Virus record (IMG/VR): IMGVR_UViG_2541047944_000003
Location: 1-44,708 of that record
Reading direction: 5' to 3' (one strand)
Source: a virus
Lineage: Duplodnaviria > Heunggongvirae > Uroviricota > Caudoviricetes
DNA: 44,708 bases
How positions within the stretch are numbered: position 1 is the first letter of the stretch; each line of letters starts with the position of its first letter. The notes under the pieces are model-generated. The model was not told where the DNA came from. It saw only the letters and a list, made by a program, of their open reading frames with translations, and ran no database searches. A program made the translations under genes and the position numbers. Below are positions 16,679-44,708 of this stretch, in pieces.

Positions 16679-17761
16679 TTAGAACTGATAAACCAGACCT
16701 ACAGCGACGATGTCGTCGGTATCAATACCAGCTGTTTTGGTAAACTTACTATCGTCAATTAAGTTGATTTTGTAATCAACAAAAGTGGACATGTTTTTAT
16801 TAAAGTAGTAAGTAGCACCGACATCGACATACTTGACTAAGTCTCGGTCACCATGAACACCAAGGTCTTTACCTTTTGACTGAAGGTAAGCAACAGATGG
16901 GCGCAGACCGAAGTCAAACTGATATTGTGCTACTGCTTCAAAGTTTTGTGCTTTGTTTGCAATATGGTTATTACCAAAAACGGTCATATTCTGAGTTTCA
17001 GAATATGTGGTAGCCAGATAGATATTGTTCGCATCATATTTCAGGCCTGCAGCCCATACTTCCGCATTTTTGCCGGAGGCATTGAATTTGCTCTTACCAT
17101 AGGCGACCTGACCGTCAGTGCGATCTGATTTAGCATAGGTTGCACCCACGCCGAATCCTTCATACTCATAAGTAGTGGAGAAACCGAAACCATCACCATT
17201 GGCTTCAGTTACGTCAGTGCGGTCATTTTTACCCTGATACTGAGCAGCAAAGTTCAGGCCATCGACCAGACCAAAGAAGTCGTTGTTACGATAAGTTGCA
17301 ACACCAGTAGTGCGACCAGTCATGAACACATCTGTTTGGGTCCAGGTATCACCACCGAATTCTGGCAGAACGTCAGTCCACGCACCGATGTCGTATGCTA
17401 CACCGTAGTTACGGCCGTAATCGATTGAGCCGTAATCACCAAATTTCAGGCCTGCAAATGCAAGACGGGTTTTGTCTTTGGAAGAACCTTGAGATTCAGC
17501 ACGGTTGCCTTTGAATTCATATTCCCACTGACCGAAACCAGTCAGTTGATCGTTGATTTGGGTTTCACCTTTGAAGCCAAGACGGGCATAAGTAGTATCA
17601 CCATCATCTGCATCATTAGAGGAGAAGTAGTGCTTGGCATTAACTTTCCCGTATAGATCCAGCTTGTTACTGTCTTTATTATAAATTTCAGCTGCCTGAG
17701 CAGACATCGCCATCAGTACTGATGCAGCTACAGCAGAAATTGCCACTGTTAATTTTTTCAT
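16679..17761 (-). CDS. nmpC: OmpC-family outer membrane porin (NmpC/Lc-like)
   Basis: Signal peptide [39 protein letters not shown] start and C-terminal VGLVYQF typical of enterobacterial general porins; intact, no IS interruption. Confidence 0.85.
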
Positions 17762-18187
17762 TGTACGCCCTTTTTTTGAACTATTATTAAAAAATGATGT
17801 CACTGCGCGATAAATATTCATCTAATCAATGTGATTATTTCAAGATGTAAGTTTTAGTTTCTCATTTAATTTGTGAAGTAGATCTCTATTTTTATCTGAA
17901 CCTTTTCTATCTAATCCTATTCATGGCTCTTGTTTGAACGAAAATAAATCTATTAGCTAATTTATATTAATGGCACTTATTTATAAGCACTCTATAATTC
18001 TTTAGCTTAATTTAAACAAACTAAAAATAACATCGGAAATTATTCATTGGTTATTTGTTGAAGTTTTCTTATGTATTTGTGGTGGTGTTTTGAACACTCG
18101 GTGGCATTCTCACAAATATCATTTAGTAGTTTACGTACGTAAAAAATTGGTTATGCTGTTAAGAGTGGTTACTTCGTCACACAGCTT

Positions 18188-18565: not shown

Positions 18566-19062
18566 TGTCGCCATCATTACGCAAGGCTATTGCTGCTGCT
18601 ATTGGTGGTGGGGCTGTTGCCATAGCGTCTGTGCTCATCACTGGTCCGAGTGGTGACGATGGCCTGGAAGGTGTCAGCTACATACCATACAAAGATATTG
18701 TTGGTGTATGGACTGTATGTCACGGGCATACAGGAAAAGACATCATGCTCGGTAAAACGTATACCAAAGCAGAATGCAAAGCACTCTTGAATAAAGACCT
18801 TGCCACTGTCGCCAGACAAATTAACCCGTACATCACAGTCGATATACCGGAAACAACGCGCGGCGCTCTTTACTCATTCGTTTACAACGTGGGCGCTGGC
18901 AATTTCAGAACATCGACGCTTCTTCGCAAAATAAACCAGGGCGATATCAAAGGCGCATGTGATCAGCTACGGCGCTGGACATACGCTGGCGGTAAGCAAT
19001 GGAAAGGGCTGATGACTCGCCGTGAGATTGAGCGTGAAGTCTGTTTGTGGGGGCAACAATGA
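18565..19062 (+). CDS. R: SAR endolysin (lysozyme with N-terminal signal-anchor-release domain)
   Basis: Gly/Ala-rich hydrophobic N-terminus ([18 protein letters not shown]) then lysozyme-like domain; follows holin with 1-nt overlap. Confidence 0.8.
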
Positions 19063-19502
19063 GCAGAGTAACCGCGATTATCTCCGCTCTGGTTATCTGC
19101 ATCATCGTCTGCCTGTCATGGGCTGTTAATCATTACCGTGATAACGCCATCGCCTACAAAGAGCAGCGCGACAAAGCCGCATCTACTATCGCTGACATGC
19201 AGAAGCGTCAACGTGATGTAGCAGAACTCGACGCCAGATACACAAAGGAGCTTGCTGATGCTAACGCGACTATCGAAAGTCTACGTGCTGATGTTTCTGC
19301 TGGTCGTAAGTGGCTGCACGTCAAAGCAGTCTGTCCGGACAAGCATAAAACCACCGCCGCCTCCGGCGTGGATGATGCTTCCAGCCCCAGACTTACTGAC
19401 ACCGCTCAACGGGATTATTTCGTTCTCAGAGAGCGCATCGAAACCATAACTAACCAATTGAATGGCCTGCAAGAGTATGTGAGATCACAGTGCTCATATT
19501 AG
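19059..19502 (+). CDS. Rz: i-spanin Rz
   Basis: N-terminal TM helix then coiled-coil; ATGA overlap with endolysin stop. Confidence 0.75.
19252..19449 (+). CDS. Rz1: o-spanin Rz1 (lipoprotein) embedded in Rz in the +1 frame
   Basis: Lipobox LVVSGC followed by proline-rich [10 protein letters not shown], as in lambda Rz1. Confidence 0.7.
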
Positions 19503-19576: not shown

Positions 19577-21148
19577 TTACTGAGAGCTCAGATCAACTTT
19601 CCAGGGCAACAGATCGCGTACCCGGTTTGCCGGCCAGTCCTGGATATGTTCAATGACGTAACGCAGCCACTTTTCTGGCTCCACATTGTTCAGACGGCAT
19701 GTGCCGATCAGCGAGTACAACACCGCCGCATGTTCACCACCGCTGTCGGAACCCGCGAACATCCAGTTTTTCCGGCCTACGGCCACTCCCCGTAAGGCGT
19801 TCTCTGCGATGTTGTTGTCGATTTCCACCCAGCCATTACTGCAGTACACGTTCAGTGCATCCCACTGTTTCAGCAGGTATGCGAACGCTTTTGCCGTATC
19901 TGAGTGACGCGACAGTGTTTTCATCTGTTGCTGTATCCAGTCATACAGTGACTGCATCAGTGGCGCGGCTCTGGCTTTTCTTGCCGCCAGACGCTGTTCT
20001 GCTGAACAGCCCCGGACCTCTGCCTCGATGGCATACAGTTCACCGATACGCTGCAGGGCTTCCGTGGTGATGTAGGTGGACGCTCTTGCATGCACATCGT
20101 GGATTTTTCTCCGGGCATGAGCCATACACGCGGCTTCCGTTATTCTGCCGGATTCGTATAACGCCCGGTAACCACCGTAAGCATCGGCCTGAAGCACACC
20201 GCTGTAACCGGCCAGGTGATTTTGTGGATGGATACCTTTCCGGTCCGGACTGTACGCGAACCAGACCGCCGGGGGCATCTGTGAACCGGCGTTACGGTCA
20301 TCACGGACGTAGACCCACAGCCGGGCTGTCCGGGTTTTACCGCTGCCCGGCTCCTGGACCGGGACGGGGATATCATCAGCATGGACTTTACCGGGCATCA
20401 GCACATACTGGCGCAGGACGTCATACAGCGGCTCCAGCAGTTCAGCAACAGCACCTGTCCAGCGCCCCAGTGTGGCACGGCTCAGCTCCACTCCCTGACG
20501 ACGGTATATTTCTGACTGGCGGTATAACGGCAGATGGTCTGCATATTTCCCGGTGACAACATGGGCCAGAAGCCCCGCTCCGGCATAACTGCGTGCAATG
20601 GGTTTTGAAGGTACTGGTGCCTGCACGATATGGTCGCACCGGCAACAGGCCTGTTTCGGACGTTGTGTTTCGATAACCTTAAAGGCGCTGCTGATAAGCT
20701 CCAGTTGCTCTGACACATCACATCCCAGAGAACTGAGTTCACCACCACAGGCAGGACAGCATTCCTCTTCCGGCCGGATAACCCGGGTTTCACGGGGAAG
20801 TGAGGCCGGTAACGGTTTACGGGCTGAAGACTGGCGCAGGGCGGATGGCAGTACCGGGTCATATTGCTCACCCAGCGTTTCCGCCATTTCTTCCTGAAGT
20901 GCGCTGATTCGCTCCTGTGCTTCCTGTATCTGCCGTTCGGTTTTTGCACGAAGTTTTTCTGAGCTTTTACCGAACTGCATACGTTGCAGTTTCGCAACCA
21001 GCGCCTTCAGCCGGTTGATTTCGGAAGCATAAGCCGCCACCCGCTGTGAGAGCAGGCGGTTGTATTCAGCCATCTGGCGGATGGTGTCCTGTTGCGTCTG
21101 CAACAGTGCCCGCAGGCGGGCGTTCTCATGAGCAAGTGAGGTGTCCAT
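19577..21148 (-). CDS. tnpC: IS66-family transposase TnpC (523 aa)
   Basis: Coiled-coil N-terminus, Cys-rich zinc-ribbon region and DDE-type core typical of IS66 transposases. Confidence 0.85.
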
Positions 21149-21167
21149 ATCCTCACTTTACAACGGG

Positions 21168-21515
21168 TTATATGCGGATTCCAGCGCGTTCCGTTCGTTT
21201 CGGGTGCTTCCAGTTGATACCTTCAAGAAGCATGGATAACTGAGCCGGAGTAAGGTGCACCTTGCCGTCACGGGTGACTGGCCAGACGAAGCGGCCCCGC
21301 TCCAGGCGTTTGGTGAAGAGGCACAGTCCGTCACTGTCAGCCCACAACACTTTTATCTGGTCACCCCGGCGTCCGCGGAAGATGAACAGGTGTCCGGAGA
21401 ACGGGTCATCCTTCAGGACGTTCTGAACTTTTGATGCCAGGCCGTTAAAGCCATTTCGCATATCGGTGATACCTGCAACCAGCCAGATACGCGAACCTGC
21501 AGGGAGAGATATCAT
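21168..21515 (-). CDS. tnpB: IS66-family accessory protein TnpB (Orf2)
   Basis: 115-aa product with GITDMRNGFNGLA...IFRGRRGDQIKVLW typical of IS66 Orf2. Confidence 0.8.
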   Translation of the reverse strand: MISLPAGSRIWLVAGITDMRNGFNGLASKVQNVLKDDPFSGHLFIFRGRRGDQIKVLWADSDGLCLFTKRLERGRFVWPVTRDGKVHLTPAQLSMLLEGINWKHPKRTERAGIRI

Positions 21516-22192
21516 CAGTGGCTGCTCCCTTTTATTTCGCGGATAAGTGTCTGTAATAACGCCGGCGTCAGTTTACCTTTAAGCCTGAGAGTTCCGGCCG
21601 GCAGAACCAGCTCACAACACAGACTGTCGGACGGTGTATTTATCTGCTCTGGTTCCTGTGCGGGGGCCGGGATTTTATTATCCGGCTCCGGCGTTAACGT
21701 CACGGGAAGCAGTGCCGGCATATTTTTTCCGGAAGGCAGCAGGCCACCTTTCCGGTATTGATGACGCCAGTTGAAGAGCAGGTTATCGTTGATTCCGTTT
21801 TCCCGGGCGATCTGCGCCACACAGGCTCCGGGCTGCAGTGACTGCTCCACTAAGGCGATTTTAAACTCATAAGGGAAGTTGGGCCGCCGGGGACGTTTTT
21901 TTACCACGGGGGCTTCGGATATAACGGTGCTTTCAGGACGTACGACTGGTACCGTGGAAAATTGTCCGTAAAGGCAGGCATCAAGTTCCTGCTCCGACAT
22001 GCCTGCGGGCAAAGGCCACGAAAGGCCAGCTCTCCGAAAGCGCACGAACATACTACAAACTGTTGATTTTGGTACACCCAGGCGACGCCCGGCCACAACC
22101 CGGGGTAAATGTTCTTCAAAGTGAAGACGTAAAGCTTCAGTGATCCAGGTCCGGTGTTTCATACGATAGTGTCCATTAAAAATGATGGACAT
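21515..22192 (-). CDS. tnpA: IS66-family accessory protein TnpA (Orf1) with extended N-terminal HTH-like region
   Basis: C-terminal half carries IS66 Orf1-like KRPRRPNFPYEFKIALVEQS segment; true start uncertain. Confidence 0.65.
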   Translation of the reverse strand: MSIIFNGHYRMKHRTWITEALRLHFEEHLPRVVAGRRLGVPKSTVCSMFVRFRRAGLSWPLPAGMSEQELDACLYGQFSTVPVVRPESTVISEAPVVKKRPRRPNFPYEFKIALVEQSLQPGACVAQIARENGINDNLLFNWRHQYRKGGLLPSGKNMPALLPVTLTPEPDNKIPAPAQEPEQINTPSDSLCCELVLPAGTLRLKGKLTPALLQTLIREIKGSSH

Positions 22193-33153: not shown

Positions 33154-33569
33154 GTTTTGCCCTGAAACTGGCGCGAGAGATGGGGCGACCCGACTGGCGC
33201 GCCATGCTTGCCGGGATGTCATCCACGGAGTACGCCGACTGGCACCGCTTTTACAGTACCCATTATTTTCATGATGTTCTGCTGGATATGCACTTTTCCG
33301 GGCTGACGTACACCGTACTCAGCCTGTTTTTCAGCGATCCGGATATGCATCCGCTGGATTTCAGTCTGCTTAACCGGCGCGAGGCTGACGAAGAGCCTGA
33401 AGATGATGTGCTGATGCAGAAAGCGGCAGGGCTTGCCGGAGGCGTCCGCTTTGGTCCGGACGGGAATGAAGTTATCCGCGCTTCCCCGGATGTGGCTGAA
33501 ATGACGGAGGATGACGTAATGCTGATGACAGTATCAGAAGGGATCGCAGGAGGAGTCCGGTATGGCTGA
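32731..33569 (+). CDS. T: tail assembly chaperone G-T fusion made by programmed -1 frameshift
   Basis: Slippery heptamer G-GGA-AAG at 33129-33135 in the G zero frame; the -1 frame continues into the T reading frame (...GKVFDGELSFALKLAREMGRPDWRAML...). Confidence 0.85.
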
Positions 33570-36123
33570 ACCGGTAGGCGATCTGGTCGTTGATTTAAGT
33601 CTGGATGCGGCCAGGTTTGACGAGCAGATGGCCAGAGTCAGGCGTCATTTTTCCGGTACGGAAAGTGATGCGAAAAAAACAGCGGCAGTCGTTGAACAGT
33701 CGCTGAGCCGACAGGCGCTGGCTGCACAGAAAGCGGGGATTTCCGTCGGGCAGTATAAAGCCGCCATGCGTATGCTGCCTGCACAGTTCACCGACGTGGC
33801 CACGCAGCTTGCAGGCGGGCAAAGTCCGTGGCTGATCCTGCTGCAACAGGGTGGTCAGGTGAAGGACTCCTTCGGCGGGATGATCCCCATGTTCAGGGGG
33901 CTTGCCGGTGCGATCACCCTGCCGATGGTGGGGGCCACCTCGCTGGCGGTGGCGACCGGTGCGCTGGCGTATGCCTGGTATCAGGGCAACTCAACCCTGT
34001 CCGATTTCAACAAAACGCTGGTCCTTTCCGGTCATCAGTCGGGTCTGACGGCAGATCGTATGCTGGTCCTGTCCAGAGCCGGGCAGGCGGCAGGGCTGAC
34101 GTTTAACCAGACCAGCGAGTCACTCAGTGCACTGGTTAAGGCGGGGGTAAGCGGTGAGGCTCAGATTGCGTCCATCAGCCAGAGTGTGGCGCGTTTCTCC
34201 TCTGCATCCGGCGTGGAGGTGGACAAGGTCGCTGAAGCCTTCGGGAAGCTGACCACAGACCCGACGTCGGGGCTGACGGCGATGGCACGCCAGTTCCATA
34301 ACGTGACGGCGGAGCAGATTGCGTATGTTGCTCAGTTGCAGCGTTCCGGCGATGAAGCCGGGGCATTGCAGGCGGCGAACGAGGCCGCAACGAAAGGGTT
34401 TGATGACCAGACCCGCCGCCTGAAAGAGAACATGGGCACGCTGGAGACCTGGGCAGACAGGACAGCGCGGGCATTCAAATCCATGTGGGATGCGGTGCTG
34501 GATATTGGTCGTCCTGATACCGCGCAGGAGATGCTGATTAAGGCAGAGGCCGCGTTTAAGAAAGCAGACGATATCTGGAATCTGCGCAAGGATGATTATT
34601 TTGTTAACGATGAAGCACGGGCGCGTTACTGGGATGATCGTGAAAAGGCCCGTCTTGCGCTTGAAGCCGCCCGAAAGAAGGCTGAGCAGCAGACTCAACA
34701 GGACAAAAATGCGCAGCAGCAGAGCGATACCGAAGCGTCACGGCTGAAATATACCGAAGAGGCGCAGAAGGCTTACGAACGCCTGCAGACGCCGCTGGAG
34801 AAATATACCGCCCGTCAGGAAGAACTGAATAAGGCACTGAAAGACGGGAAAATCCTGCAGGCAGATTACAACACGCTGATGGCGGCAGCGAAAAAGGATT
34901 ATGAAGCGACGCTGAAAAAGCCGAAGCAGTCCGGCGTGAAGGTGTCTGCGGGCGATCGTCAGGAAGACAGTGCTCATGCTGCCCTGCTGACGCTTCAGGC
35001 AGAACTCCGGATGCTGGAGAAGCATGCCGGAGCGAATGAGAAAATCAGCCAGCAGCGCCGGGATTTGTGGAAGGCGGAGAATCAGTTCGCGGTACTGGAG
35101 GAGGCGGCGCAACGTCGCCAGCTGTCTGCACAGGAGAAATCCCTGCTGGCGCATAAAGACGAGACGCTGGAGTACAAGCGCCAGCTGGCTGCACTTGGCG
35201 ATAAGGTCACGTATCAGGAGCACCTGAATGCGCTGGCGCAGCAGGCGGATAAATTCGCACAGCAGCAACGGGCAAAACGGGCCGCCATTGATGCGAAAAG
35301 CCGGGGGCTGACTGACCGGCAGGCAGCGCGGGAAGCCACGGAACAGCGCCTGAAGGAACAGTATGGCGATAATCCGCTGGCGCTGAATAACGTCATGTCA
35401 GAGCAGAAAAAGACCTGGGCGGCTGAAGACCAGCTTCGCGGGAGCTGGATGGCAGGCCTGAAGTCCGGCTGGAGTGAGTGGGAAGAGAGCGCCACGGACA
35501 GTATGTCGCAGGTTAAAAGTGCTGCCACGCAGACCTTTGATGGTATTGCACAGAATATGGCGGCGATGCTGACCGGCAGTGAACAGAACTGGCGCAGCTT
35601 CACCCGCTCCGTGCTGTCCATGATGACAGAAATTCTGCTTAAGCAGGCAATGGTGGGGATTGTCGGGAGTATCGGCAGCGCCATTGGCGGTGCTGCCAGT
35701 GGTGGAGCATCAGCGTCAGGTGGTACAGCCATTCAGGCCGCTGCGGCGAAATTCCATTTTGCGACCGGGGGATTTACGGGAACCGGCGGCAAATATGAGC
35801 CAGCGGGGATTGTTCACCGTGGTGAATTTGTCTTCACGAAGGAGGCAACCAGCCGGATTGGCGTGGGGAATCTCTACCGGCTGATGCGCGGCTATGCCAC
35901 CGGCGGTTATGTCGGTACACCGGGCAGTCTGGCGGACAGCCGGTCGCAGGCGTCCGGGACGTTTGAGCAGAATAACCATGTGGTGATTAACAACGACGGC
36001 ACGAACGGTCAGATAGGGCCACAGGCACTGAAGGCTGTTTATGACGTAGCCCGTAAGGCGGCAATGGATGTTGTGACCGGGCAGATGCGCGATGGTGGTC
36101 TGTTCTCCGGAGGTGGACGATGA
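33562..36123 (+). CDS. H: tail tape measure protein H
   Basis: 853-aa product matching lambda H length and sequence. Confidence 0.95.
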   Translation: MAEPVGDLVVDLSLDAARFDEQMARVRRHFSGTESDAKKTAAVVEQSLSRQALAAQKAGISVGQYKAAMRMLPAQFTDVATQLAGGQSPWLILLQQGGQVKDSFGGMIPMFRGLAGAITLPMVGATSLAVATGALAYAWYQGNSTLSDFNKTLVLSGHQSGLTADRMLVLSRAGQAAGLTFNQTSESLSALVKAGVSGEAQIASISQSVARFSSASGVEVDKVAEAFGKLTTDPTSGLTAMARQFHNVTAEQIAYVAQLQRSGDEAGALQAANEAATKGFDDQTRRLKENMGTLETWADRTARAFKSMWDAVLDIGRPDTAQEMLIKAEAAFKKADDIWNLRKDDYFVNDEARARYWDDREKARLALEAARKKAEQQTQQDKNAQQQSDTEASRLKYTEEAQKAYERLQTPLEKYTARQEELNKALKDGKILQADYNTLMAAAKKDYEATLKKPKQSGVKVSAGDRQEDSAHAALLTLQAELRMLEKHAGANEKISQQRRDLWKAENQFAVLEEAAQRRQLSAQEKSLLAHKDETLEYKRQLAALGDKVTYQEHLNALAQQADKFAQQQRAKRAAIDAKSRGLTDRQAAREATEQRLKEQYGDNPLALNNVMSEQKKTWAAEDQLRGSWMAGLKSGWSEWEESATDSMSQVKSAATQTFDGIAQNMAAMLTGSEQNWRSFTRSVLSMMTEILLKQAMVGIVGSIGSAIGGAASGGASASGGTAIQAAAAKFHFATGGFTGTGGKYEPAGIVHRGEFVFTKEATSRIGVGNLYRLMRGYATGGYVGTPGSLADSRSQASGTFEQNNHVVINNDGTNGQIGPQALKAVYDVARKAAMDVVTGQMRDGGLFSGGGR

Positions 36124-36449
36124 AAACCTTCCGCTGGAAAGTGAAACCCGGTATGGATGTAGCTTCGGCCCCTTCCGTAAGAAAGGTGCGCTTTGGTGAT
36201 GGCTATTCCCAGCGAGCGCCTGCCGGGCTGAACGCTGACCTGAAAACGTACAGCGTGACGCTTTCTGTTCCCCGTTGGGAGGCCACAGCGCTGGAGTCGT
36301 TTCTGGCTGAGCACGGGGGCTGGAAAGCCTTTCTGTGGACGCCGCCTTATGAGTGGCGGCAGATAAAGGTGACCTGCGCAAAATGGTCGTCGCGGGTCAG
36401 TATGCTGCGTGTTGAGTTCAGCGCAGAGTTTGAACAGGTGGTGAACTGA
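36120..36449 (+). CDS. M: tail tip protein M
   Basis: 109-aa product as in lambda M. Confidence 0.95.
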   Translation: MKTFRWKVKPGMDVASAPSVRKVRFGDGYSQRAPAGLNADLKTYSVTLSVPRWEATALESFLAEHGGWKAFLWTPPYEWRQIKVTCAKWSSRVSMLRVEFSAEFEQVVN

Positions 36450-37147
36450 TGCAGGATATCCGGCAGGAAACACTGAATGAATGCACCCGTGCGGAGCAGT
36501 CGGCCAGCGTGGTGCTCTGGGAAATCGATCTGACAGAGGTCGGTGGAGAGCGTTATTTTTTCTGTAATGAGCAGAACGAAAAAGGTGAGCCGGTCACCTG
36601 GCAGGGGCGACAGTATCAGGCGTATCCCATTCAGGGGAGCGGTTTTGAACTGAATGGCAAAGGCACCAGTACGCGCCCCACGCTGACGGTTTCTAACCTG
36701 TACGGTATGGTCACCGGGATGGTGGAAGATCTGCAGAGTCTGGTCGGCGGAACGGTGGTCAGGCGTAAGGTTTACGCCCGTTTTCTGGATGCGGTGAATT
36801 TCGTCAACGGAAACAGCGATGCCGATCCGGAGCAGGAGGTGATCAGCCGCTGGCGCGTCGAGCAGTGCAGCGAACTGAGCACGGTCAGTGCCTCCTTTGT
36901 GTTGTCCACGCCGACGGAAACGGATGGTGCTGTTTTTCCGGGGCGCATCATGCTGGCCAACACCTGCACCTGGACCTATCGCGGTGATGAGTGCGGTTAT
37001 AGCGGTCCGGCGGTCGCGGATGAATATGACCAGCCGACGTCCGATATCACGAAGGATAAATGCAGCAAATGCCTGAGCGGTTGTAAGTTCCGCAATAACG
37101 TCGGCAACTTTGGCGGCTTCCTTTCCATTAACAAACTTTCGCAGTAA
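36449..37147 (+). CDS. L: tail tip protein L
   Basis: 232-aa product as in lambda L, including C-terminal Cys cluster. Confidence 0.95.
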   Translation: MQDIRQETLNECTRAEQSASVVLWEIDLTEVGGERYFFCNEQNEKGEPVTWQGRQYQAYPIQGSGFELNGKGTSTRPTLTVSNLYGMVTGMVEDLQSLVGGTVVRRKVYARFLDAVNFVNGNSDADPEQEVISRWRVEQCSELSTVSASFVLSTPTETDGAVFPGRIMLANTCTWTYRGDECGYSGPAVADEYDQPTSDITKDKCSKCLSGCKFRNNVGNFGGFLSINKLSQ

Positions 37148-37152
37148 ATCCC

Positions 37153-37896
37153 ATGACACAGACAGAATCAGCGATTCTGGCGCACGCCCGGCGATGTGCG
37201 CCAGCGGAGTCGTGCGGCTTCGTGGTGAGAACGCCGGAGGGGGAAAGATATTTTCCCTGCGTGAATATCTCCGGTGAGCCGGAGGATTATTTCCGGATGT
37301 CGCCGGAGGACTGGCTGCAGGCAGAAATGCAGGGTGAGATTGTGGCGCTGGTCCACAGTCATCCCGGTGGTCTGCCCTGGCTGAGTGAGGCCGACCGGCG
37401 GCTGCAGGTGCAGAGTGATTTGCCGTGGTGGCTGGTCTGCCGGGGGGCGATTCATAAGTTCCGCTGTGTGCCGCATCTCACCGGGCGGCGCTTTGAGCAC
37501 GGGGTGACGGACTGTTACACGCTGTTCCGGGACGCTTACCATCTGGCGGGGATTGAGATGCCGGACTTTCATCGTGAGGATGACTGGTGGCGTAACGGCC
37601 AGAATCTCTATCTTGATAATCTGGAGGCCACAGGGCTGTATCAGGTGCCGTTGTCAGCGGCGCAGCCGGGCGATGTGCTGCTGTGCTGCTTTGGTTCATC
37701 GGTGCCGAATCATGCCGCCATTTACTGTGGTGACGGCGAGCTGCTGCACCATATTCCTGAACAACTGAGCAAACGAGAGAGGTACACCGACAAATGGCAG
37801 CGACGCACACACTCCCTCTGGCGTCACCGGGCATGGCACGCATCTGCCTTTACGGGGATTTACAACGATTTGGCCGCCGCATCGATCTTCGTGTGA
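37153..37896 (+). CDS. K: tail tip assembly protein K (JAB/MPN plus NlpC/P60-like)
   Basis: 247-aa product as in lambda K with HSHP motif. Confidence 0.95.
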   Translation: MTQTESAILAHARRCAPAESCGFVVRTPEGERYFPCVNISGEPEDYFRMSPEDWLQAEMQGEIVALVHSHPGGLPWLSEADRRLQVQSDLPWWLVCRGAIHKFRCVPHLTGRRFEHGVTDCYTLFRDAYHLAGIEMPDFHREDDWWRNGQNLYLDNLEATGLYQVPLSAAQPGDVLLCCFGSSVPNHAAIYCGDGELLHHIPEQLSKRERYTDKWQRRTHSLWRHRAWHASAFTGIYNDLAAASIFV

Positions 37897-38465
37897 AAAC
37901 AGGGGCTGAAGCCATCCGGGCGCTGGCCACGCAGCTTCCGTCGTTTCGTCAGAAACTGAGCGACGGCTGGTATCAGGTACGGATTGCCGGGCGGGATGTC
38001 AGCACGTCCGGATTAACGGCGCAGTTACATGAGGCTCTGCCTGATGGCGCTGTGATTCATATTGTTCCCAGAGTCGCCGGGGCCAAGCCCGGAGGTGTAT
38101 TCCAGATTGTCCTGGGAGCAGCCGCCATTGCCGGATCATTCTTTACCGCCGGAGCCACCCTTGCAGCATGGGGGGCAGCCATTGGGGCCGGTGGTATGAC
38201 CGGCATCCTGTTTTCTCTCGGTGCCAGTATGGTGCTCGGTGGTGTGGCGCAGATGCTGGCACCGAAAGCCCGGACGCCCACAGCGACCAGCACGGATAAC
38301 GGTAAGCAGAACACCTATTTCTCCTCACTGGATAACATGGTTGCCCAGGGCAATGTTCTGCCCGTTCTGTTCGGTGAAATGCGCGTGGGGTCACGTGTGG
38401 CATCTCAGGAAATCAGTACAGCTGATGAAGGTGATGGTGGTGAAATCGTGGTGATTGGTCGCTGA
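37794..38465 (+). CDS. I: tail tip assembly protein I
   Basis: 223-aa product overlapping the K 3' end as in lambda. Confidence 0.9.
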   Translation: MAATHTLPLASPGMARICLYGDLQRFGRRIDLRVKTGAEAIRALATQLPSFRQKLSDGWYQVRIAGRDVSTSGLTAQLHEALPDGAVIHIVPRVAGAKPGGVFQIVLGAAAIAGSFFTAGATLAAWGAAIGAGGMTGILFSLGASMVLGGVAQMLAPKARTPTATSTDNGKQNTYFSSLDNMVAQGNVLPVLFGEMRVGSRVASQEISTADEGDGGEIVVIGR

Positions 38466-38525: not shown

Positions 38526-41500
38526 ATGGGTAAAGGCAGCAGTAAGGGGCATACCCCGCGCGAAGCGAAGGACAACCTGAAATCCACGCAGTTGCTGAGT
38601 GTGATCGATGTCATCAGCGAAGGGCCGGTTGAAGGTCCGGTGGATGGGTTAAAAAGCGTGCTGCTGAACAGTACGCCGGTGCTGGACAGTGAGGGGAATA
38701 CCAATATCTCCGGTGTCACGGTGGTGTTCCGGGCAGGTGAGCAGGAGCAGACACCGCCGGAGGGGTTTGAATCCTCCGGCTCCGAGACGGTGCTGGGTAC
38801 GGAAGTGAAATATGACACGCCGATCACCCGCACCATCACGTCGGCAAACATCGACCGTCTGCGTTTTACTTTCGGCGTGCAGGCACTGGTGGAAACCACC
38901 TCAAAAGGGGACCGGAATCCGTCGGAAGTCCGCCTGCTGGTTCAGATACAGCGTAACGGTGGCTGGGTGACGGAAAAAGACATCACCATTAAGGGCAAAA
39001 CCACCTCACAGTATCTGGCCTCGGTGGTGGTGGATAACCTGCCGCCGCGCCCGTTTAATATCCGGATGCGCAGAATGACGCCGGACAGCACCACAGACCA
39101 GCTGCAGAACAAAACGCTCTGGTCGTCATACACCGAAATTATCGATGTGAAACAGTGCTACCCGAACACGGCACTGGTCGGCGTGCAGGTGGATTCGGAG
39201 CAGTTCGGCAGCCAGCAGGTGAGCCGTAATTATCATCTGCGCGGGCGCATTCTGCAGGTGCCGTCGAACTATGATCCGGAAAAACGCACTTACAGCGGTA
39301 TCTGGGACGGAACGTTAAAACCGGCATACAGCAACAACATGGCCTGGTGTCTGTGGGATATGCTGACCCATCCGCGCTACGGCATGGGGAAACGTCTTGG
39401 TGCGGCGGATGTGGATAAATGGGCGCTGTATGTCATCGGCCAGTACTGTGACCAGTCTGTACCGAATGGTTTTGGTGGAACGGAGCCGCGCATCACCTGT
39501 AACGCTTACCTGACCACACAGCGTAAGGCGTGGGATGTTCTCAGTGATTTCTGCTCGGCGATGCGCTGTATGCCGGTATGGAACGGGCAGACGCTGACGT
39601 TCGTGCAGGACCGACCGTCGGATAAGGTGTGGACCTATAACCGCAGTAATGTGGTGATGCCGGATGATGACGCGCCGTTCCGCTACAGCTTCAGCGCCCT
39701 GAAGGACCGCCATAATGCCGTTGAGGTGAACTGGATTGACCCGAACAACGGCTGGGAGACGGCAACAGAGCTCGTGGAGGACACGCAGGCCATTCTCCGT
39801 TACGGTCGTAACGTCACGAAGATGGATGCCTTTGGCTGTACCAGCCGGGGGCAGGCACACCGCGCCGGGCTGTGGCTGATTAAAACAGAACTGCTGGAAA
39901 CGCAGACCGTGGATTTCAGCGTCGGCGCAGAAGGGCTTCGCCATGTACCGGGCGATGTTATTGAAATCTGTGATGATGACTATGCCGGTATCAGCACCGG
40001 TGGTCGTGTGCTGGCGGTGAACAGCCAGACCCGGACGCTGACGCTCGACCGTGAAATCACGCTGCCATCCTCCGGTACCACGCTGATAAGCCTGGTTGAC
40101 GGAAGTGGCAATCCGGTCAGCGTGGAGGTTCAGTCCGTCACCGACGGCGTGAAGGTAAAAGTGAGCCGTGTTCCTGACGGTGTTGCTGAATACAGCGTGT
40201 GGGGGCTGAAGCTGCCGACGCTGCGCCAGCGCCTGTTCCGCTGCGTGAGTATCCGTGAGAACGACGACGGCACGTATGCCATCACCGCCGTGCAGCATGT
40301 ACCGGAAAAAGAGGCCATCGTGGATAACGGGGCGCACTTTGACGGCGACCAGAGCGGCACGGTGAATGGTGTCACGCCGCCAGCGGTGCAGCACCTGACC
40401 GCCGAAGTCACCGCAGACAGCGGGGAATACCAGGTGCTGGCGCGCTGGGACACGCCGAAGGTGGTGAAGGGCGTGAGCTTCCTGCTCCGTCTGGCCGTGG
40501 CAGCGGACGACGGCAGTGAGCGGCTGGTCAGCACGGCCAGGACGACGGAAACCACATACCGCTTCAGGCAACTGGCGCTGGGGAACTACAGGCTGACAGT
40601 CCGGGCAGTAAATGCGTGGGGGCAGCAGGGCGATCCGGCGTCGGTATCGTTCCGGATTGCCGCACCGGCAGCGCCGTCGCGGATTGAGCTGACGCCGGGC
40701 TATTTTCAGATAACTGCCACGCCGCATCTTGCGGTTTATGATCCGACGGTACAGTTTGAGTTCTGGTTCTCGGAAACGCGGATTACCGATATCAGGCAGG
40801 TTGAAACCACAGCCCGCTATCTTGGCACGGCGCTGTACTGGATAGCCGCCAGTATCAATATCAAACCGGGCCGTGATTATTATTTTTACATCCGCAGTGT
40901 GAACACCGTTGGCAAATCGGCATTTGTGGAGGCTGTTGGCCAGCCGAGTGATGATGCATCCGGCTATCTGGATTTTTTCAAAGGAGAGATAGGGAAAACC
41001 CATCTGGCTCAGGAGTTGTGGACGCAGATTGATAACGGTCAGCTTGCGCCTGACCTGGCGGAAATCAAAACGTCCATCACGGATGTCAGTAATGAAATCA
41101 CGCAGACCGTCAATAAGAAACTGGAAGACCAGAGTGCAGCGATCCAGCAGATACAGAAGGTTCAGGTTGATACAAATAATAACCTGAACAGCATGTGGGC
41201 TGTGAAGCTGCAGCAGATGCAGGACGGACGCCTTTATATCGCGGGTATTGGTGCCGGTATTGAAAACACCCCTGACGGCATGCAGAGTCAGGTGCTGCTG
41301 GCGGCAGACAGGATTGCGATGATTAATCCTGCGAATGGCAACACAAAGCCGATGTTTGTTGGGCAGGGCGATCAGATATTCATGAACGAAGTGTTCCTGA
41401 AATATCTGACGGCTCCCACCATTACCAGCGGTGGCAATCCCCCAACGTTTTCACTGACACCTGATGGTCGATTTTCTGCGAAAAATGCGGATATCAGCGG

Positions 41501-42008
41501 TAACGTGAACGCGAACTCCGGGACGCTCAACAACGTCACGATTAATCAGAACTGTCGGATTCTGGGAAAACTGTCAGCTAACCAGATTGAAGGTGATATT
41601 GTCAAAACGGTGGGAAAAGCCTTTCCGAGAAATGGCAGTTATGCCAGCGGTACAATAACGGTCACTGTGTACGATGACCAGGCTTTTGACCGTCAGATAG
41701 TAGTCCCCCCCGTTCTGTTTCGTGGGGGTAAGCATGAAAACTTCAACAGCAACAACCAACAGTCATACTGGTATTCAACCTGTAAGCTGCAGGTACTGAA
41801 GAACGGACAGGAAATCTTTCAGCAACCCGCGACGGATGTCAGCAGGGTATTTTCATCAGTCATTGATATGCCTGCCGGACACGGCCATGTCACCCTGACT
41901 TTCAATGTTTCTTCATATGGTGCTAATAACTGGACGCCAACGACCAGTATCAGCGACCTTCTTGTTGTTGTGATGAAGAAATCTACAGCCGGTATCAGTA
42001 TCAGTTGA
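38526..42008 (+). CDS. J: central tail fiber / host specificity protein J with divergent C-terminal receptor-binding region
   Basis: N-terminal ~800 aa match lambda J as remembered; C-terminal ~350 aa differ and the protein is 1160 aa versus 1132 aa in lambda. Confidence 0.95.
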
Positions 42009-42027
42009 ATTTTATAACCCAGATACG

Positions 42028-42051
42028 GGCGCCAGAAATGGCGCCTTTTTT
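42028..42051 (+). terminator. intrinsic terminator downstream of J
   Basis: Palindromic stem GGCGCC-agaaat-GGCGCC followed by TTTTTT. Confidence 0.6.
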
Positions 42052-42066
42052 ATTTGTGGAGTGAAT

Positions 42067-44127
42067 ATGGCAGTACAGATTTCAGGCGTGCTGAAAGACG
42101 GTGCAGGAAAACCGATACAGAACTGCACCATTCAGCTCAAAGCAAAACGTAACAGCACCACGGTTGTGGTGAACACGGTGGCCTCAGAAAATCCGGATGA
42201 AGCCGGACGTTACAGCATGGATGTCGAGTATGGCCAGTACAGCGTTATCCTGTTGGTTGAAGGTTTTCCGCCTTCACATGCCGGGGCTATCACCGTGTAT
42301 GAGGATTCTAAGCCGGGGACATTGAATGATTTTCTGGGCGCTGCAACAGAAGATGATGTTCGTCCGGAGGCACTGTATCGTTTTGAAAAGATGGTGGAAG
42401 AGGTGGCACGCAACGCTGAAGCCGCCTCTCAGAGCGCAGCGGCAGCAAAGAAATCAGAAACAGCAGCGGCATCGTCCAGGAATGCGGCGAAAACATCAGA
42501 GACGAATGCAGGTAACAGCGCGAAAGCGGCAGCTTCTTCAAAAACAGCCGCACAAAACGCAGCAACAGCGGCAGAACGTTCAGAGACAAATGCCCGTGCG
42601 TCAGAAGAAGCCTCCGCAGACAGTGAAGAGGCTTCCCGCCGTAATGCAGAGTCAGCCGCTGAAAATGCCGGAGTCGCCACCACAAAAGCGCGGGAGGCCG
42701 CAGCAGACGCAACAAAGGCCGGGCAGAAAAAGGATGAGGCTCTGTCGGCAGCGACACGGGCTGAAAAGGCGGCAGACCGCGCAGAAGTCGCAGCGGAAGT
42801 GACTGCAGAGCCCTATGCGAATATAGTGCCGCCGCTGCCTGATGTGTGGATACCGTTTAACGATTCACTGGATATGATTGCGGGTTTTTCTCCGGGCTAT
42901 AAAAAAATAGCTATTGGTGACGATGTGGTTCAGGTCGCCAGTGATAAACAGGTTAATTTCAGTCGCGCATCAACGGCAACATATATCAACAAATCTGGCG
43001 AACTGAAAACGGCGGAAATTAATGAGCCGCGATTTGAGTGTGATGGCCTGCTTATTGAGGGACAAAGAACGAACTACATGCTCAATTCGGAAAGTCCAGC
43101 CAGCTGGGGGAAGTCATCAAACATGGATGTGCCCGAAACCGGGACGGATAGTTTTGGTTTTACTTATGGAAAGTTTGTCTGCAACGATTCTCTGGTTGGG
43201 CAAACTTCGGCTATTAATATGGCATCAATTGCTGCAACAAAGTCAGTTGATGTCTCAGGCGATAACAAGTACGTGACAACCTCATGCCGTTTTAAAACAG
43301 AACGACAGGTAAGGTTACGTATACGGTTTGATAAGTATGATGGTAGTGCAACAACTTTTCTTGGCGATGCGTACATTGATACGCAAACGCTTGAAATTAA
43401 TATGACAGGTGGTGCTGCCGGCAGAATTACGGCACGAGTCAGGAAGGATAAGACCACAGGCTGGATTTTTGCAGAGGCAACGATTCAGGCAATTGATGGT
43501 GAGTTAAAAATAGGCTCTCAGATACAGTATTCTCCTGAGCAGGGTGGGGCAACAGTATCTGGTGACTATATTTATCTTGCCACCCCACAAGTAGAGAATG
43601 GGCCGTGTGTATCATCATTTATTATTTCAGGAGGCAGCGCAACGACAAGAGCCAGTGATTTGGTTAGTATCCCCACCAGAAATAATCTTTATAAGTTACC
43701 ATTTACTTTTTTACTTGAGATTCATAAAAACTGGGATATTGCACCAAACGCCGCACCCCGCGTGTGGGATATAGCAGCAGCCAATACCGGGCAATCAGCA
43801 ATTGCAGCAATCAACAGAGGTAGTGGTAAGTTATATATGAGTCTGTCAAACCCTTCAGGCTCGTATGTTAATAGCGCAGCGACAGATGTATTTGCAGAGA
43901 AAACCACATTTGGATGTATTGCAAAAGCTGATGGTCACTTTCATGTGGTGACAAATGGTAAAGCGGTTAATGAAGTTTATTGTGAATATAATGGCGTGAC
44001 CGCTGATAAAAATATCCGATTTGGAGGGCAGACGAATACTGGAGAACGACATCTGTTTGGCCATATTCGCAATTTCCGCATATGGCATAAAGAATTAAAT
44101 GACAGGCAATTAAAAGAGGTCGTATGA
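42067..44127 (+). CDS. stf: side tail fiber protein with lambda Stf-like N-terminus and unrelated AT-richer C-terminal domain (686 aa)
   Basis: MAVQISGVLKDGAGKPIQNCTIQLKAKRNSTTVVVNTV... matches lambda Stf N-terminus as remembered; Ala/Ser-rich repeat then novel C-terminal region. Confidence 0.8.
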   Translation: MAVQISGVLKDGAGKPIQNCTIQLKAKRNSTTVVVNTVASENPDEAGRYSMDVEYGQYSVILLVEGFPPSHAGAITVYEDSKPGTLNDFLGAATEDDVRPEALYRFEKMVEEVARNAEAASQSAAAAKKSETAAASSRNAAKTSETNAGNSAKAAASSKTAAQNAATAAERSETNARASEEASADSEEASRRNAESAAENAGVATTKAREAAADATKAGQKKDEALSAATRAEKAADRAEVAAEVTAEPYANIVPPLPDVWIPFNDSLDMIAGFSPGYKKIAIGDDVVQVASDKQVNFSRASTATYINKSGELKTAEINEPRFECDGLLIEGQRTNYMLNSESPASWGKSSNMDVPETGTDSFGFTYGKFVCNDSLVGQTSAINMASIAATKSVDVSGDNKYVTTSCRFKTERQVRLRIRFDKYDGSATTFLGDAYIDTQTLEINMTGGAAGRITARVRKDKTTGWIFAEATIQAIDGELKIGSQIQYSPEQGGATVSGDYIYLATPQVENGPCVSSFIISGGSATTRASDLVSIPTRNNLYKLPFTFLLEIHKNWDIAPNAAPRVWDIAAANTGQSAIAAINRGSGKLYMSLSNPSGSYVNSAATDVFAEKTTFGCIAKADGHFHVVTNGKAVNEVYCEYNGVTADKNIRFGGQTNTGERHLFGHIRNFRIWHKELNDRQLKEVV

Positions 44128-44402
44128 AAGATTTAACTTTGAAGTTTCATGACAAACTGCAGTTTAAGGCCTTCCTGTCATCTCTTGGCTGGGCGGAAGA
44201 TGAAGACCTCCAGAATAAACTGTTAGTTGATGAAATTGGTTTCACCTACACAGAAACAGGGGTAACAGAAGAGGGAGAACCTGTCTGTATCCGGAATGAT
44301 GGTTATTTTGTCAACATTCGCATTCTTGATGACTTGTTTGATGTTTCTGTATTCTCTGATTATGTCGTGGAGCTGGAAACACCGCTTCGGGAATGGAGCT
44401 GA
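44124..44402 (+). CDS. hypothetical acidic protein (92 aa) downstream of stf, possibly fiber-associated
   Basis: ATGA overlap with stf stop; no similarity to lambda Tfa recognised. Confidence 0.45.
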   Translation: MKDLTLKFHDKLQFKAFLSSLGWAEDEDLQNKLLVDEIGFTYTETGVTEEGEPVCIRNDGYFVNIRILDDLFDVSVFSDYVVELETPLREWS

Positions 44403-44414
44403 AAGGAGGAAATA

Positions 44415-44708
44415 ATGGATATAAGCCCCTTACTTCATGCACTTTGTGCTGTGGCTGCGCAGATACTGGTTGGTCTTTTTACCGGAAACTGGGCTTACGG
44501 AGCGATAGCCGGTTGTACGTTCTTCATTGCGCGTGAACATACCCAGGCAGAATATCGCTGGATTGAAATGTTCGGGCATGGCAAGCGAATGAATATGCCG
44601 TGGTGGGGCGGTTTTGATCCGCGTGCTTGGGATGTGGCAAGCCTGATGGATTTTGCTGTGCCGGTGGTGGCGTGTCTGCTGGTCTGGCTGTTGGTTAATC
44701 GTGGGTGA
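44415..44708 (+). CDS. hypothetical membrane protein (97 aa)
   Basis: ORF with GGAGG RBS, two hydrophobic segments, stop at window end. Confidence 0.45.
   Translation: MDISPLLHALCAVAAQILVGLFTGNWAYGAIAGCTFFIAREHTQAEYRWIEMFGHGKRMNMPWWGGFDPRAWDVASLMDFAVPVVACLLVWLLVNRG

Follow-up and report, generated by a model that had tools for sequence, protein, structure and literature searches.

Which outer-membrane protein a lambdoid prophage would use for adsorption becomes a question when the C-terminal end of its central tail fibre protein J departs from that of phage lambda, where this end binds LamB. Such a departure occurs in the window, i.e. the whole 44,708-nt stretch of DNA analysed here (IMG/VR record IMGVR_UViG_2541047944_000003), in which the gene for J, the central tail fibre or tip attachment protein, lies on the plus strand at 38526..42008 and is intact, encoding 1160 amino acids, as judged from the open reading frame list, Pfam and the lambda J structures. 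An earlier note on this DNA, made from the sequence alone, proposed that the prophage has acquired a swapped host-range module and probably uses a receptor different from that of lambda. A 562-aa antisense open reading frame within J (39315-41003) was not considered further, as it was taken for a side effect of the long coding frame of J.

The Pfam domains found on the protein, all above curated cutoffs (Phage-tail_3, FNIII-A_GpJ, Ig_J, Ig_J_second, Phage_Tail_Tip and Ig_GpJ_C), follow the order seen in lambda gpJ, running from the hub domains to the C-terminal Ig-like receptor-binding domain (RBD). The match to the solved lambda J chains is full-length and colinear (PDB 8iyk, E=0), whole-length identity to lambda J is 85%, and the gene stands at the end of the tail operon, preceded by open reading frames (33562-38465) in the order H, M, L, K, I, as in lambda and phage 21. 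By domain content and alignment, the protein is a member of the lambdoid tip attachment protein J (gpJ) family; a role as trimeric tail tip and central fibre would follow from its homology to the solved lambda and A8 structures.

Likeness to lambda ends sharply within the gene. Over the lambda-like body (residues 1-816, 38526..40973, plus strand), which comprises the hub domains and two FNIII/Ig domains, 787 of 816 residues (96.4%) are identical to lambda J in a gapless stretch of the global alignment, and 96.8% are identical to phage 21 J. In the remainder of the same alignment, identity to lambda is 50% over residues 817-865, where 27-28 residues are inserted, 59.8% over residues 866-983 and 53.5%, with indels present, over residues 984-1160. 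At the nucleotide level the divergence is abrupt, at window ~40956-40971: in 90-nt bins, identity to lambda is 87-100% through the bin at 40866 and 50% in the bin at 40956, beyond which it ranges from 28 to 80% and does not recover before the J stop codon. Coordinate 40970, at which the earlier note starts the divergent stretch, is one base ahead of codon 816 (the D of LDFFKGE), i.e. on the breakpoint. The earlier description of a protein that tracks lambda J for its first ~800 residues, then differs, and is 28 residues longer (1160 aa compared with 1132 aa for lambda J in NC_001416) thus proved accurate.

The divergent part, delimited by alignment and, for the shaft, by the lambda domain boundaries of PMC11101478, comprises three plus-strand segments: an alpha-helical shaft (residues ~817-871, 40974..41138), the central straight fibre or beta-prism corresponding to Phage_Tail_Tip (residues 872-1000, 41139..41525; ~60% identical to lambda and 98-99% to phage 21), and the specificity region with the RBD (residues 984-1160, 41475..42005), within which Ig_GpJ_C covers residues 1038-1160. 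The net gain of 28 residues is made up of +28 in the shaft (window residues ~836-866, nt 41031-41123) together with -4, +5 and -1 in RBD loops, located at lambda 1011-1014, after lambda 1053 and at lambda ~1103-1107, respectively. The shaft insertion corresponds to four heptads, with hydrophobic residues at 75% of a/d positions and 15% of other positions in the best register, and we infer that it extends the trimeric shaft as a coiled coil by these four heptads, or roughly 4 nm. Of the distal loops that lambda inserts into LamB, L1-L4, not one is kept, the sequence differing in all four and the length in three, with loop positions taken from the indel and mutation hotspots of PMC6646904 rather than from structure coordinates. 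The pairwise alignment that had been suggested as a check therefore upholds the description of the C-terminal region as non-lambda, and the RBD is not of the lambda LamB-binding type sensu stricto. Whilst lambda J (P03749; PDB 8IYK, and 8XCJ with LamB) shares family, domain order, tail-operon position and the first 816 residues with the protein described here, the two RBDs are just ~50-53% identical, all four specificity loops differ and the shaft here is the longer; lambda also has lom after J and another stf C-terminus, unlike the window.

The divergent end is, however, far from lacking relatives, and its closest match is phage 21. A DNA search with 40970-42008 identified phage 21 (OL657228), mEp460_4F5, ev017 and PhiR57_1 at 98.7-98.8% identity. 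The J proteins of the window and of phage 21 (CPT_21_21, UMO75436.1) are both 1160 aa long and 97.4% identical, and all 30 differences between them precede residue 984, such that residues 984-1160 are identical at 177 of 177 positions and the final 536 nt of the gene agree base for base. A protein search with residues 984-1160 likewise gave 100% identity to phage 21 and mEp460_4F5, compared with 82% to A8 gpJ, 53% to lambda and 50% to phage 434. Phage 21 J carries the same 28-residue shaft insertion, and the indel signature relative to lambda (shaft +28, deletion at ~1012, insertion at ~1048-1053, deletion at ~1107) is that of the phage-21-type allele. In the first two thirds of J, lambda and phage 21 are about equally near (~95-96% each), the body of the window's J being a lambda/21 mosaic slightly different from that of phage 21. 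On the strength of these alignments, the gene is a phage-21 allele of the lambdoid central tail fibre J, in a recombinant whose first 816 residues are lambda-like.

Identity to phage 21 continues beyond J, amounting to 99-100% over window 40956-44708 and, for 42009-44708 against phage 21 19176-21875, to 99.4% across all 2700 nt. Only 52 nt separate J from stf, with no lom gene; this gap contains a terminator-like hairpin (42027-42046) that with its T-run occupies 42027..42056 on the plus strand and equals the terminator annotated in phage 21. The side tail fibre gene stf (42067..44127, plus strand) is of phage-21 type, with 99.7% amino acid identity; its longest open reading frame begins at GTG 42061, and the phage 21 annotation has it start at the equivalent of ATG 42067. 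The Stf N-terminus is lambda-Stf-like (phage_tail_N), being 74% identical to residues 1-158 of lambda orf-401 and unrelated beyond, and the C-terminus weakly resembles a ConA-like lectin fold, its Laminin_G_3 score of 24.5 bits falling short of the 27.6 set as the curated cutoff in Pfam. Two small open reading frames 3' of stf (44124..44708, plus strand), within the 99.4% stretch, follow the order of CPT_21_23 and CPT_21_24; the first, of 92 aa, has no Pfam match and the second, of 97 aa, is a putative membrane protein. The order of terminator, stf, 92-aa frame and small membrane protein, and the absence of lom, are thus common to window and phage 21. With an identical RBD, the indel signature and a linked stf without lom, the J shaft, beta-prism and RBD, together with the terminator, side tail fibre and two small frames, are by sequence comparison a phage-21-type host-range cassette. 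The proposed swap of a host-range module, with stf and without lom, is accordingly real when measured against lambda, but the module is not new, being that of phage 21.

Elsewhere the prophage departs from phage 21, in its early region, porin gene and IS66 alike, and the late region otherwise resembles that of the natural lambda-like gut phages 1H12, ev207 and Perceval. The IS66-family element, at 19577-22192 between the Rz lysis gene and a DUF6979 open reading frame upstream of Nu1, may impair the prophage, and J could in that event be the relic of a defective element whose adsorption role has been lost. We consider this very improbable: the J frame runs its full length uninterrupted by frameshifts, a viable phage has the identical RBD, and nothing is missing from the tail module, which as a whole shares 96% identity with those of plaque-forming phages.

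The allele carried by this E. coli prophage is also a common one. The exact J protein is present in NCBI as WP_021572567.1 / EQZ27100.1, 'host specificity protein J' of E. coli UMEA 3585-1, and around 1000 complete E. coli genome records, about a fifth of complete genomes, contain a copy 95-99% identical to 40970-42008. A search with the J protein gave thousands of matches, of which the top 120 each share ~99% identity and, where the source is named, are nearly all annotated as E. coli. The top-scoring homologue, P0001, is 86% identical and was rejected as a distinct variant, since it is this allele lengthened by a tandem duplication of 50 residues. Residues K848 and F983 of the present protein are absent from the 119 aligned closest homologues. 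Amongst 1207 natural J homologues, Maddamsetti et al. 2018 defined lineages by indels at lambda 1012, 1048-49, 1077-78 and 1107 (PMC6646904), and three of these changes are found here, i.e. the deletion at 1012, the insertion at 1048-53 and the deletion at 1107. This J is an already known, widespread and ordinary variant, not peculiar to this prophage.

Identification with phage 21 bears directly upon the receptor. For phage 21 (OL657228), Borin et al. name LamB as the native receptor, with lysis of delta-lamB cells absent until J was mutated, and describe the stepwise gain of OmpC and then OmpF (bioRxiv 10.1101/2023.04.13.536812). According to Gerbino et al. 2024, the first OmpC-enabling change in phage 21 was the single substitution I1025T (PMC11336670), which lies at the trimer interface, immediately N-terminal to the RBD. 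In the window, codon 1025 (41598..41600, plus strand) encodes the ancestral Ile and not the OmpC-enabling Thr. Because LamB is the documented receptor of phage 21, and use of OmpC and then OmpF requires one to a few mutations in J, LamB is also the most likely primary receptor here, an assignment that we regard as probably correct, and one in which the RBD would reach LamB through loops unlike those of lambda; lambda J and the present protein would then possibly have their receptor in common. The literature searched contained no independent or classical source on the phage 21 receptor, and receptor data for a 21-type J were absent from a 2026 receptor-prediction preprint and from papers on EHEC phi330, infant coliphages, SNIPE and Chi-site lambdoid phages. 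The expectation of a probably different receptor is weakened by an RBD identical to that of phage 21, reported as LamB-dependent (in a stock carrying E1071K), and by the retention of I1025, and a receptor other than LamB is the less likely reading. The full explanation, in which a phage-21 J allele acts in the manner of lambda J with LamB as its most likely primary receptor, is given a probability of roughly 0.6.

The manner of action proposed is modelled upon the lambda J mechanism of Ge and Wang 2024 (PMC11101478). As in lambda, the J trimer would close the tail tip, and its C-terminal Ig-like domains would place the distal RBD loops into the extracellular mouth of a trimeric outer-membrane porin. 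Spreading of the RBD bases would then cause the beta-prism to twist and the helical shaft to flip, freeing the FNIII domains and opening the tube. The longer 21-type shaft would lengthen the fibre, and should leave this scheme unchanged.

The assay that supports LamB carries a caveat at a single residue. Borin et al. noted one difference between their stock and GenBank phage 21, G18903A in J (bioRxiv 10.1101/2023.04.13.536812), which on the deposited phage 21 sequence we compute to be the first base of codon 1071, changing GAA to AAA (E1071K). In the window, codon 1071 (41736..41738, plus strand) is GAA, and Glu is likewise present in GenBank phage 21, in A8 and in 119 of 119 aligned close homologues. 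The residue belongs to the RBD loop in which five residues are inserted compared with lambda, at the lambda 1048-1053 indel hotspot, and this is presumed to be a surface loop. Since the stock had K1071 and the window has E1071, the LamB assay covers the E1071K RBD rather than the exact natural one, and the substitution may matter for receptor choice. The two Meyer-lab papers give, in their supplements, neither a full list of mutations in the evolved phage 21 J nor any comment on G18903A.

The nearest solved structure to the RBD is that of A8 gpJ 713, whose RBD is 82% identical. A8 is an engineered chimera in which lambda J gives way at residue 964 to a natural allele from an E. coli prophage, and was chosen for the delivery of DNA via OmpC into delta-lamB cells (PMC11338833); its gpJ is available in the closed state (PDB 9WCA) and, with OmpC of E. 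coli EDL933 bound, in the open state (PDB 9WCB). Its RBD fold, length, indel pattern relative to lambda and C-terminal strand are the same as those of the present J, and the loop at 1067-1083, with E1071, is identical. A8 differs in having OmpC as its receptor, in the absence of the 28-residue shaft insertion, and at 30 of 168 RBD positions, which cluster at 1036-37, 1047-53, 1087-92, 1099-1107 and 1119-22, with 1131 in addition; by loop, six changes lie in the loop-3 region (1099-1107), two in the loop-1 region and one in the loop-4 region. With the window the natural segment of A8 shares 82.1% identity, but with the alleles of PhiR70_1 and Stx1_8100 it shares 98-99%, a gap that places the window's RBD outside the A8 / PhiR70_1 OmpC-binding type, and by these identities the A8 allele belongs to a sister class of the 21-type allele. 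Given how the two RBDs differ, 21-type and A8-type proteins need not share a receptor, and different receptors are plausible. Phage 434 J (OL657226), another OmpC user, has a lambda-like body and fold as here, but its RBD is 50% identical with other indels, indicating a separate specificity lineage, and the present J is not of the 434 OmpC-binding type. AlphaFold2 modelling of residues 985-1160 from the sequence alone was of poor quality (mean pLDDT 52.8), the ~99% identity of the best 120 homologues affording no diversity for a better alignment; the model was rejected, and the Foldseek matches to 9WCB, 9WCA, 8XCK and 8XCJ, at an rmsd of 16-19 A, reflect sequence likeness rather than modelled structure, so that only entry titles and identities were used from them.

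These comparisons give some substance to the possibility that OmpC is the primary receptor for the natural E1071 RBD, either by itself or alongside LamB, and that the LamB-only phenotype of phage 21 is due to the E1071K substitution of the stock. The closest solved relative, with an 82% identical RBD and the same 1067-1083 loop, is in complex with OmpC and delivers DNA into delta-lamB cells through it (PMC11338833), and I1025T alone, at the trimer interface and outside the loops, confers OmpC use, which suggests a latent affinity for OmpC (PMC11336670). E1071 is invariant in the 119 aligned close homologues, none of the four lambda specificity loops is kept, and the prophage has an OmpC-like porin gene of its own. 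In phage PA-2, a similar porin gene goes with OmpC use. Conversely, the sole direct assay of a near-identical RBD, one residue removed from that of the window, found dependence upon LamB with no growth on delta-lamB cells, the Borin authors gave no effect of G18903A, and the A8 and 21-type RBDs are strongly different in the loop-3 region and differ also in loops 1 and 4. On balance we judge OmpC as the primary receptor of this J to be rather unlikely. The wider form of the proposal, that the natural E1071 21-type RBD, as shared by this prophage, GenBank phage 21 and the 119 homologues, binds OmpC or both LamB and OmpC, with the LamB-only phenotype arising from E1071K, we hold to be unlikely, and put forward with slightly more reserve.

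It is also conceivable that the RBD binds some other outer-membrane protein (OmpF or the prophage-type porin), or a variant of the receptor in the natural host, in which case results from K-12 would not transfer. J homologues of the same fold bind several trimeric porins, and a few mutations shift specificity between LamB, OmpC and OmpF; moreover, Mathieu et al. 2020 distinguished four J clusters in natural lambda-like phages and found that they did not predict host range (PMC6969025). Positive evidence for another receptor is nevertheless lacking, and phage 21, PhiR57_1, ev017 and mEp460 were all grown on ordinary laboratory E. coli, leading us to consider this improbable. LamB, reached through 21-type loops, is accordingly the reading that we prefer.

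Much of what surrounds this locus is already published, namely the allele itself, the lineage that its indels define, how abundant it is in E. coli prophages, the evolvability of LamB, OmpC and OmpF use, and the structure of an OmpC-bound relative. For the family, a J C-terminus unlike that of lambda does not alone predict a different receptor. Caution in predicting receptors is warranted because phage 21 reportedly reaches LamB with unrelated loops, and an 82%-identical allele binds OmpC. The modest point that is left concerns the effect of E1071K, which separates the assayed stock from the natural allele. If the wider OmpC proposal were true, a single residue would switch a widespread J allele between two porins, and the LamB-only phenotype on which published work on phage 21 coevolution rests would trace to a laboratory substitution, E1071K, in one distal loop.

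Within the receptor-binding domain of the phage-21-type central tail fibre protein J (1160 aa, 38526-42008, + strand), attention falls on a loop containing residue 1071 (codon 41736-41738), which is glutamate in all 119 of the aligned close homologues (drawn from the best 120 of thousands of protein-search matches to J). Relative to the GenBank record of phage 21 (OL657228), the stock used in published receptor and coevolution work carries the substitution G18903A, which by our computation gives rise to E1071K at this loop position. Two further residues are found in J of the window only, i.e. Lys848 (codon 41067-41069), located in the shaft, and Phe983 (codon 41472-41474), located in the beta-prism; all 119 aligned closest homologues carry Arg848 and Leu983, respectively, and both positions lie outside the receptor-binding domain.

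The top-scoring J homologue (P0001, a partial E. coli protein from NCBI that is 86% identical and of the same allele) contains a tandem duplication of a 50-residue segment (QQIQKV...GMQSQV), sited at the junction between shaft and beta-prism of the phage-21-type allele, that could be either an assembly artefact or a genuine length variant. The J gene itself also wholly encloses an antisense open reading frame of 562 aa (39315-41003, - strand), in all likelihood an incidental consequence of the length of the J frame.

Downstream lies a phage-21-type side tail fibre (42061-44127) with a lambda-like N-terminal anchor, whose C-terminus (residues 562-683) gives a weak match to Laminin_G_3, a concanavalin-A-like lectin fold, at 24.5 bits, short of the curated Pfam cutoff of 27.6 bits. 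Behind this fibre gene there is no recognisable gene for tail fibre assembly (Tfa), only a 92-aa open reading frame without a Pfam match.

Elsewhere in the prophage, an IS66-family insertion sequence (approximately 19577-22192, - strand) encodes three proteins, a DDE_Tnp_IS66 transposase (522 aa), TnpB_IS66 (114 aa) and HTH_Tnp_1 (224 aa), between the Rz lysis gene (19047-19502) on one side and a DUF6979 reading frame and Nu1 on the other. In the phage comparison, matches to related phages stop at 19433 and resume at approximately 23026, around this element, which may affect prophage viability.

The prophage additionally carries a general porin gene (16679-17821, - strand; Pfam Porin_1, E=2e-151), whose nearest solved relatives are OmpC, OmpK36 and OmpK37 and whose counterpart in the related phages ev017 and PhiR57_1 is annotated as OmpD, NmpC or OmpC. 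It is similar to porin genes that lambdoid phages carry as lc/nmpC morons, and in phage PA-2 use of OmpC goes together with a porin gene of the lc/nmpC kind.
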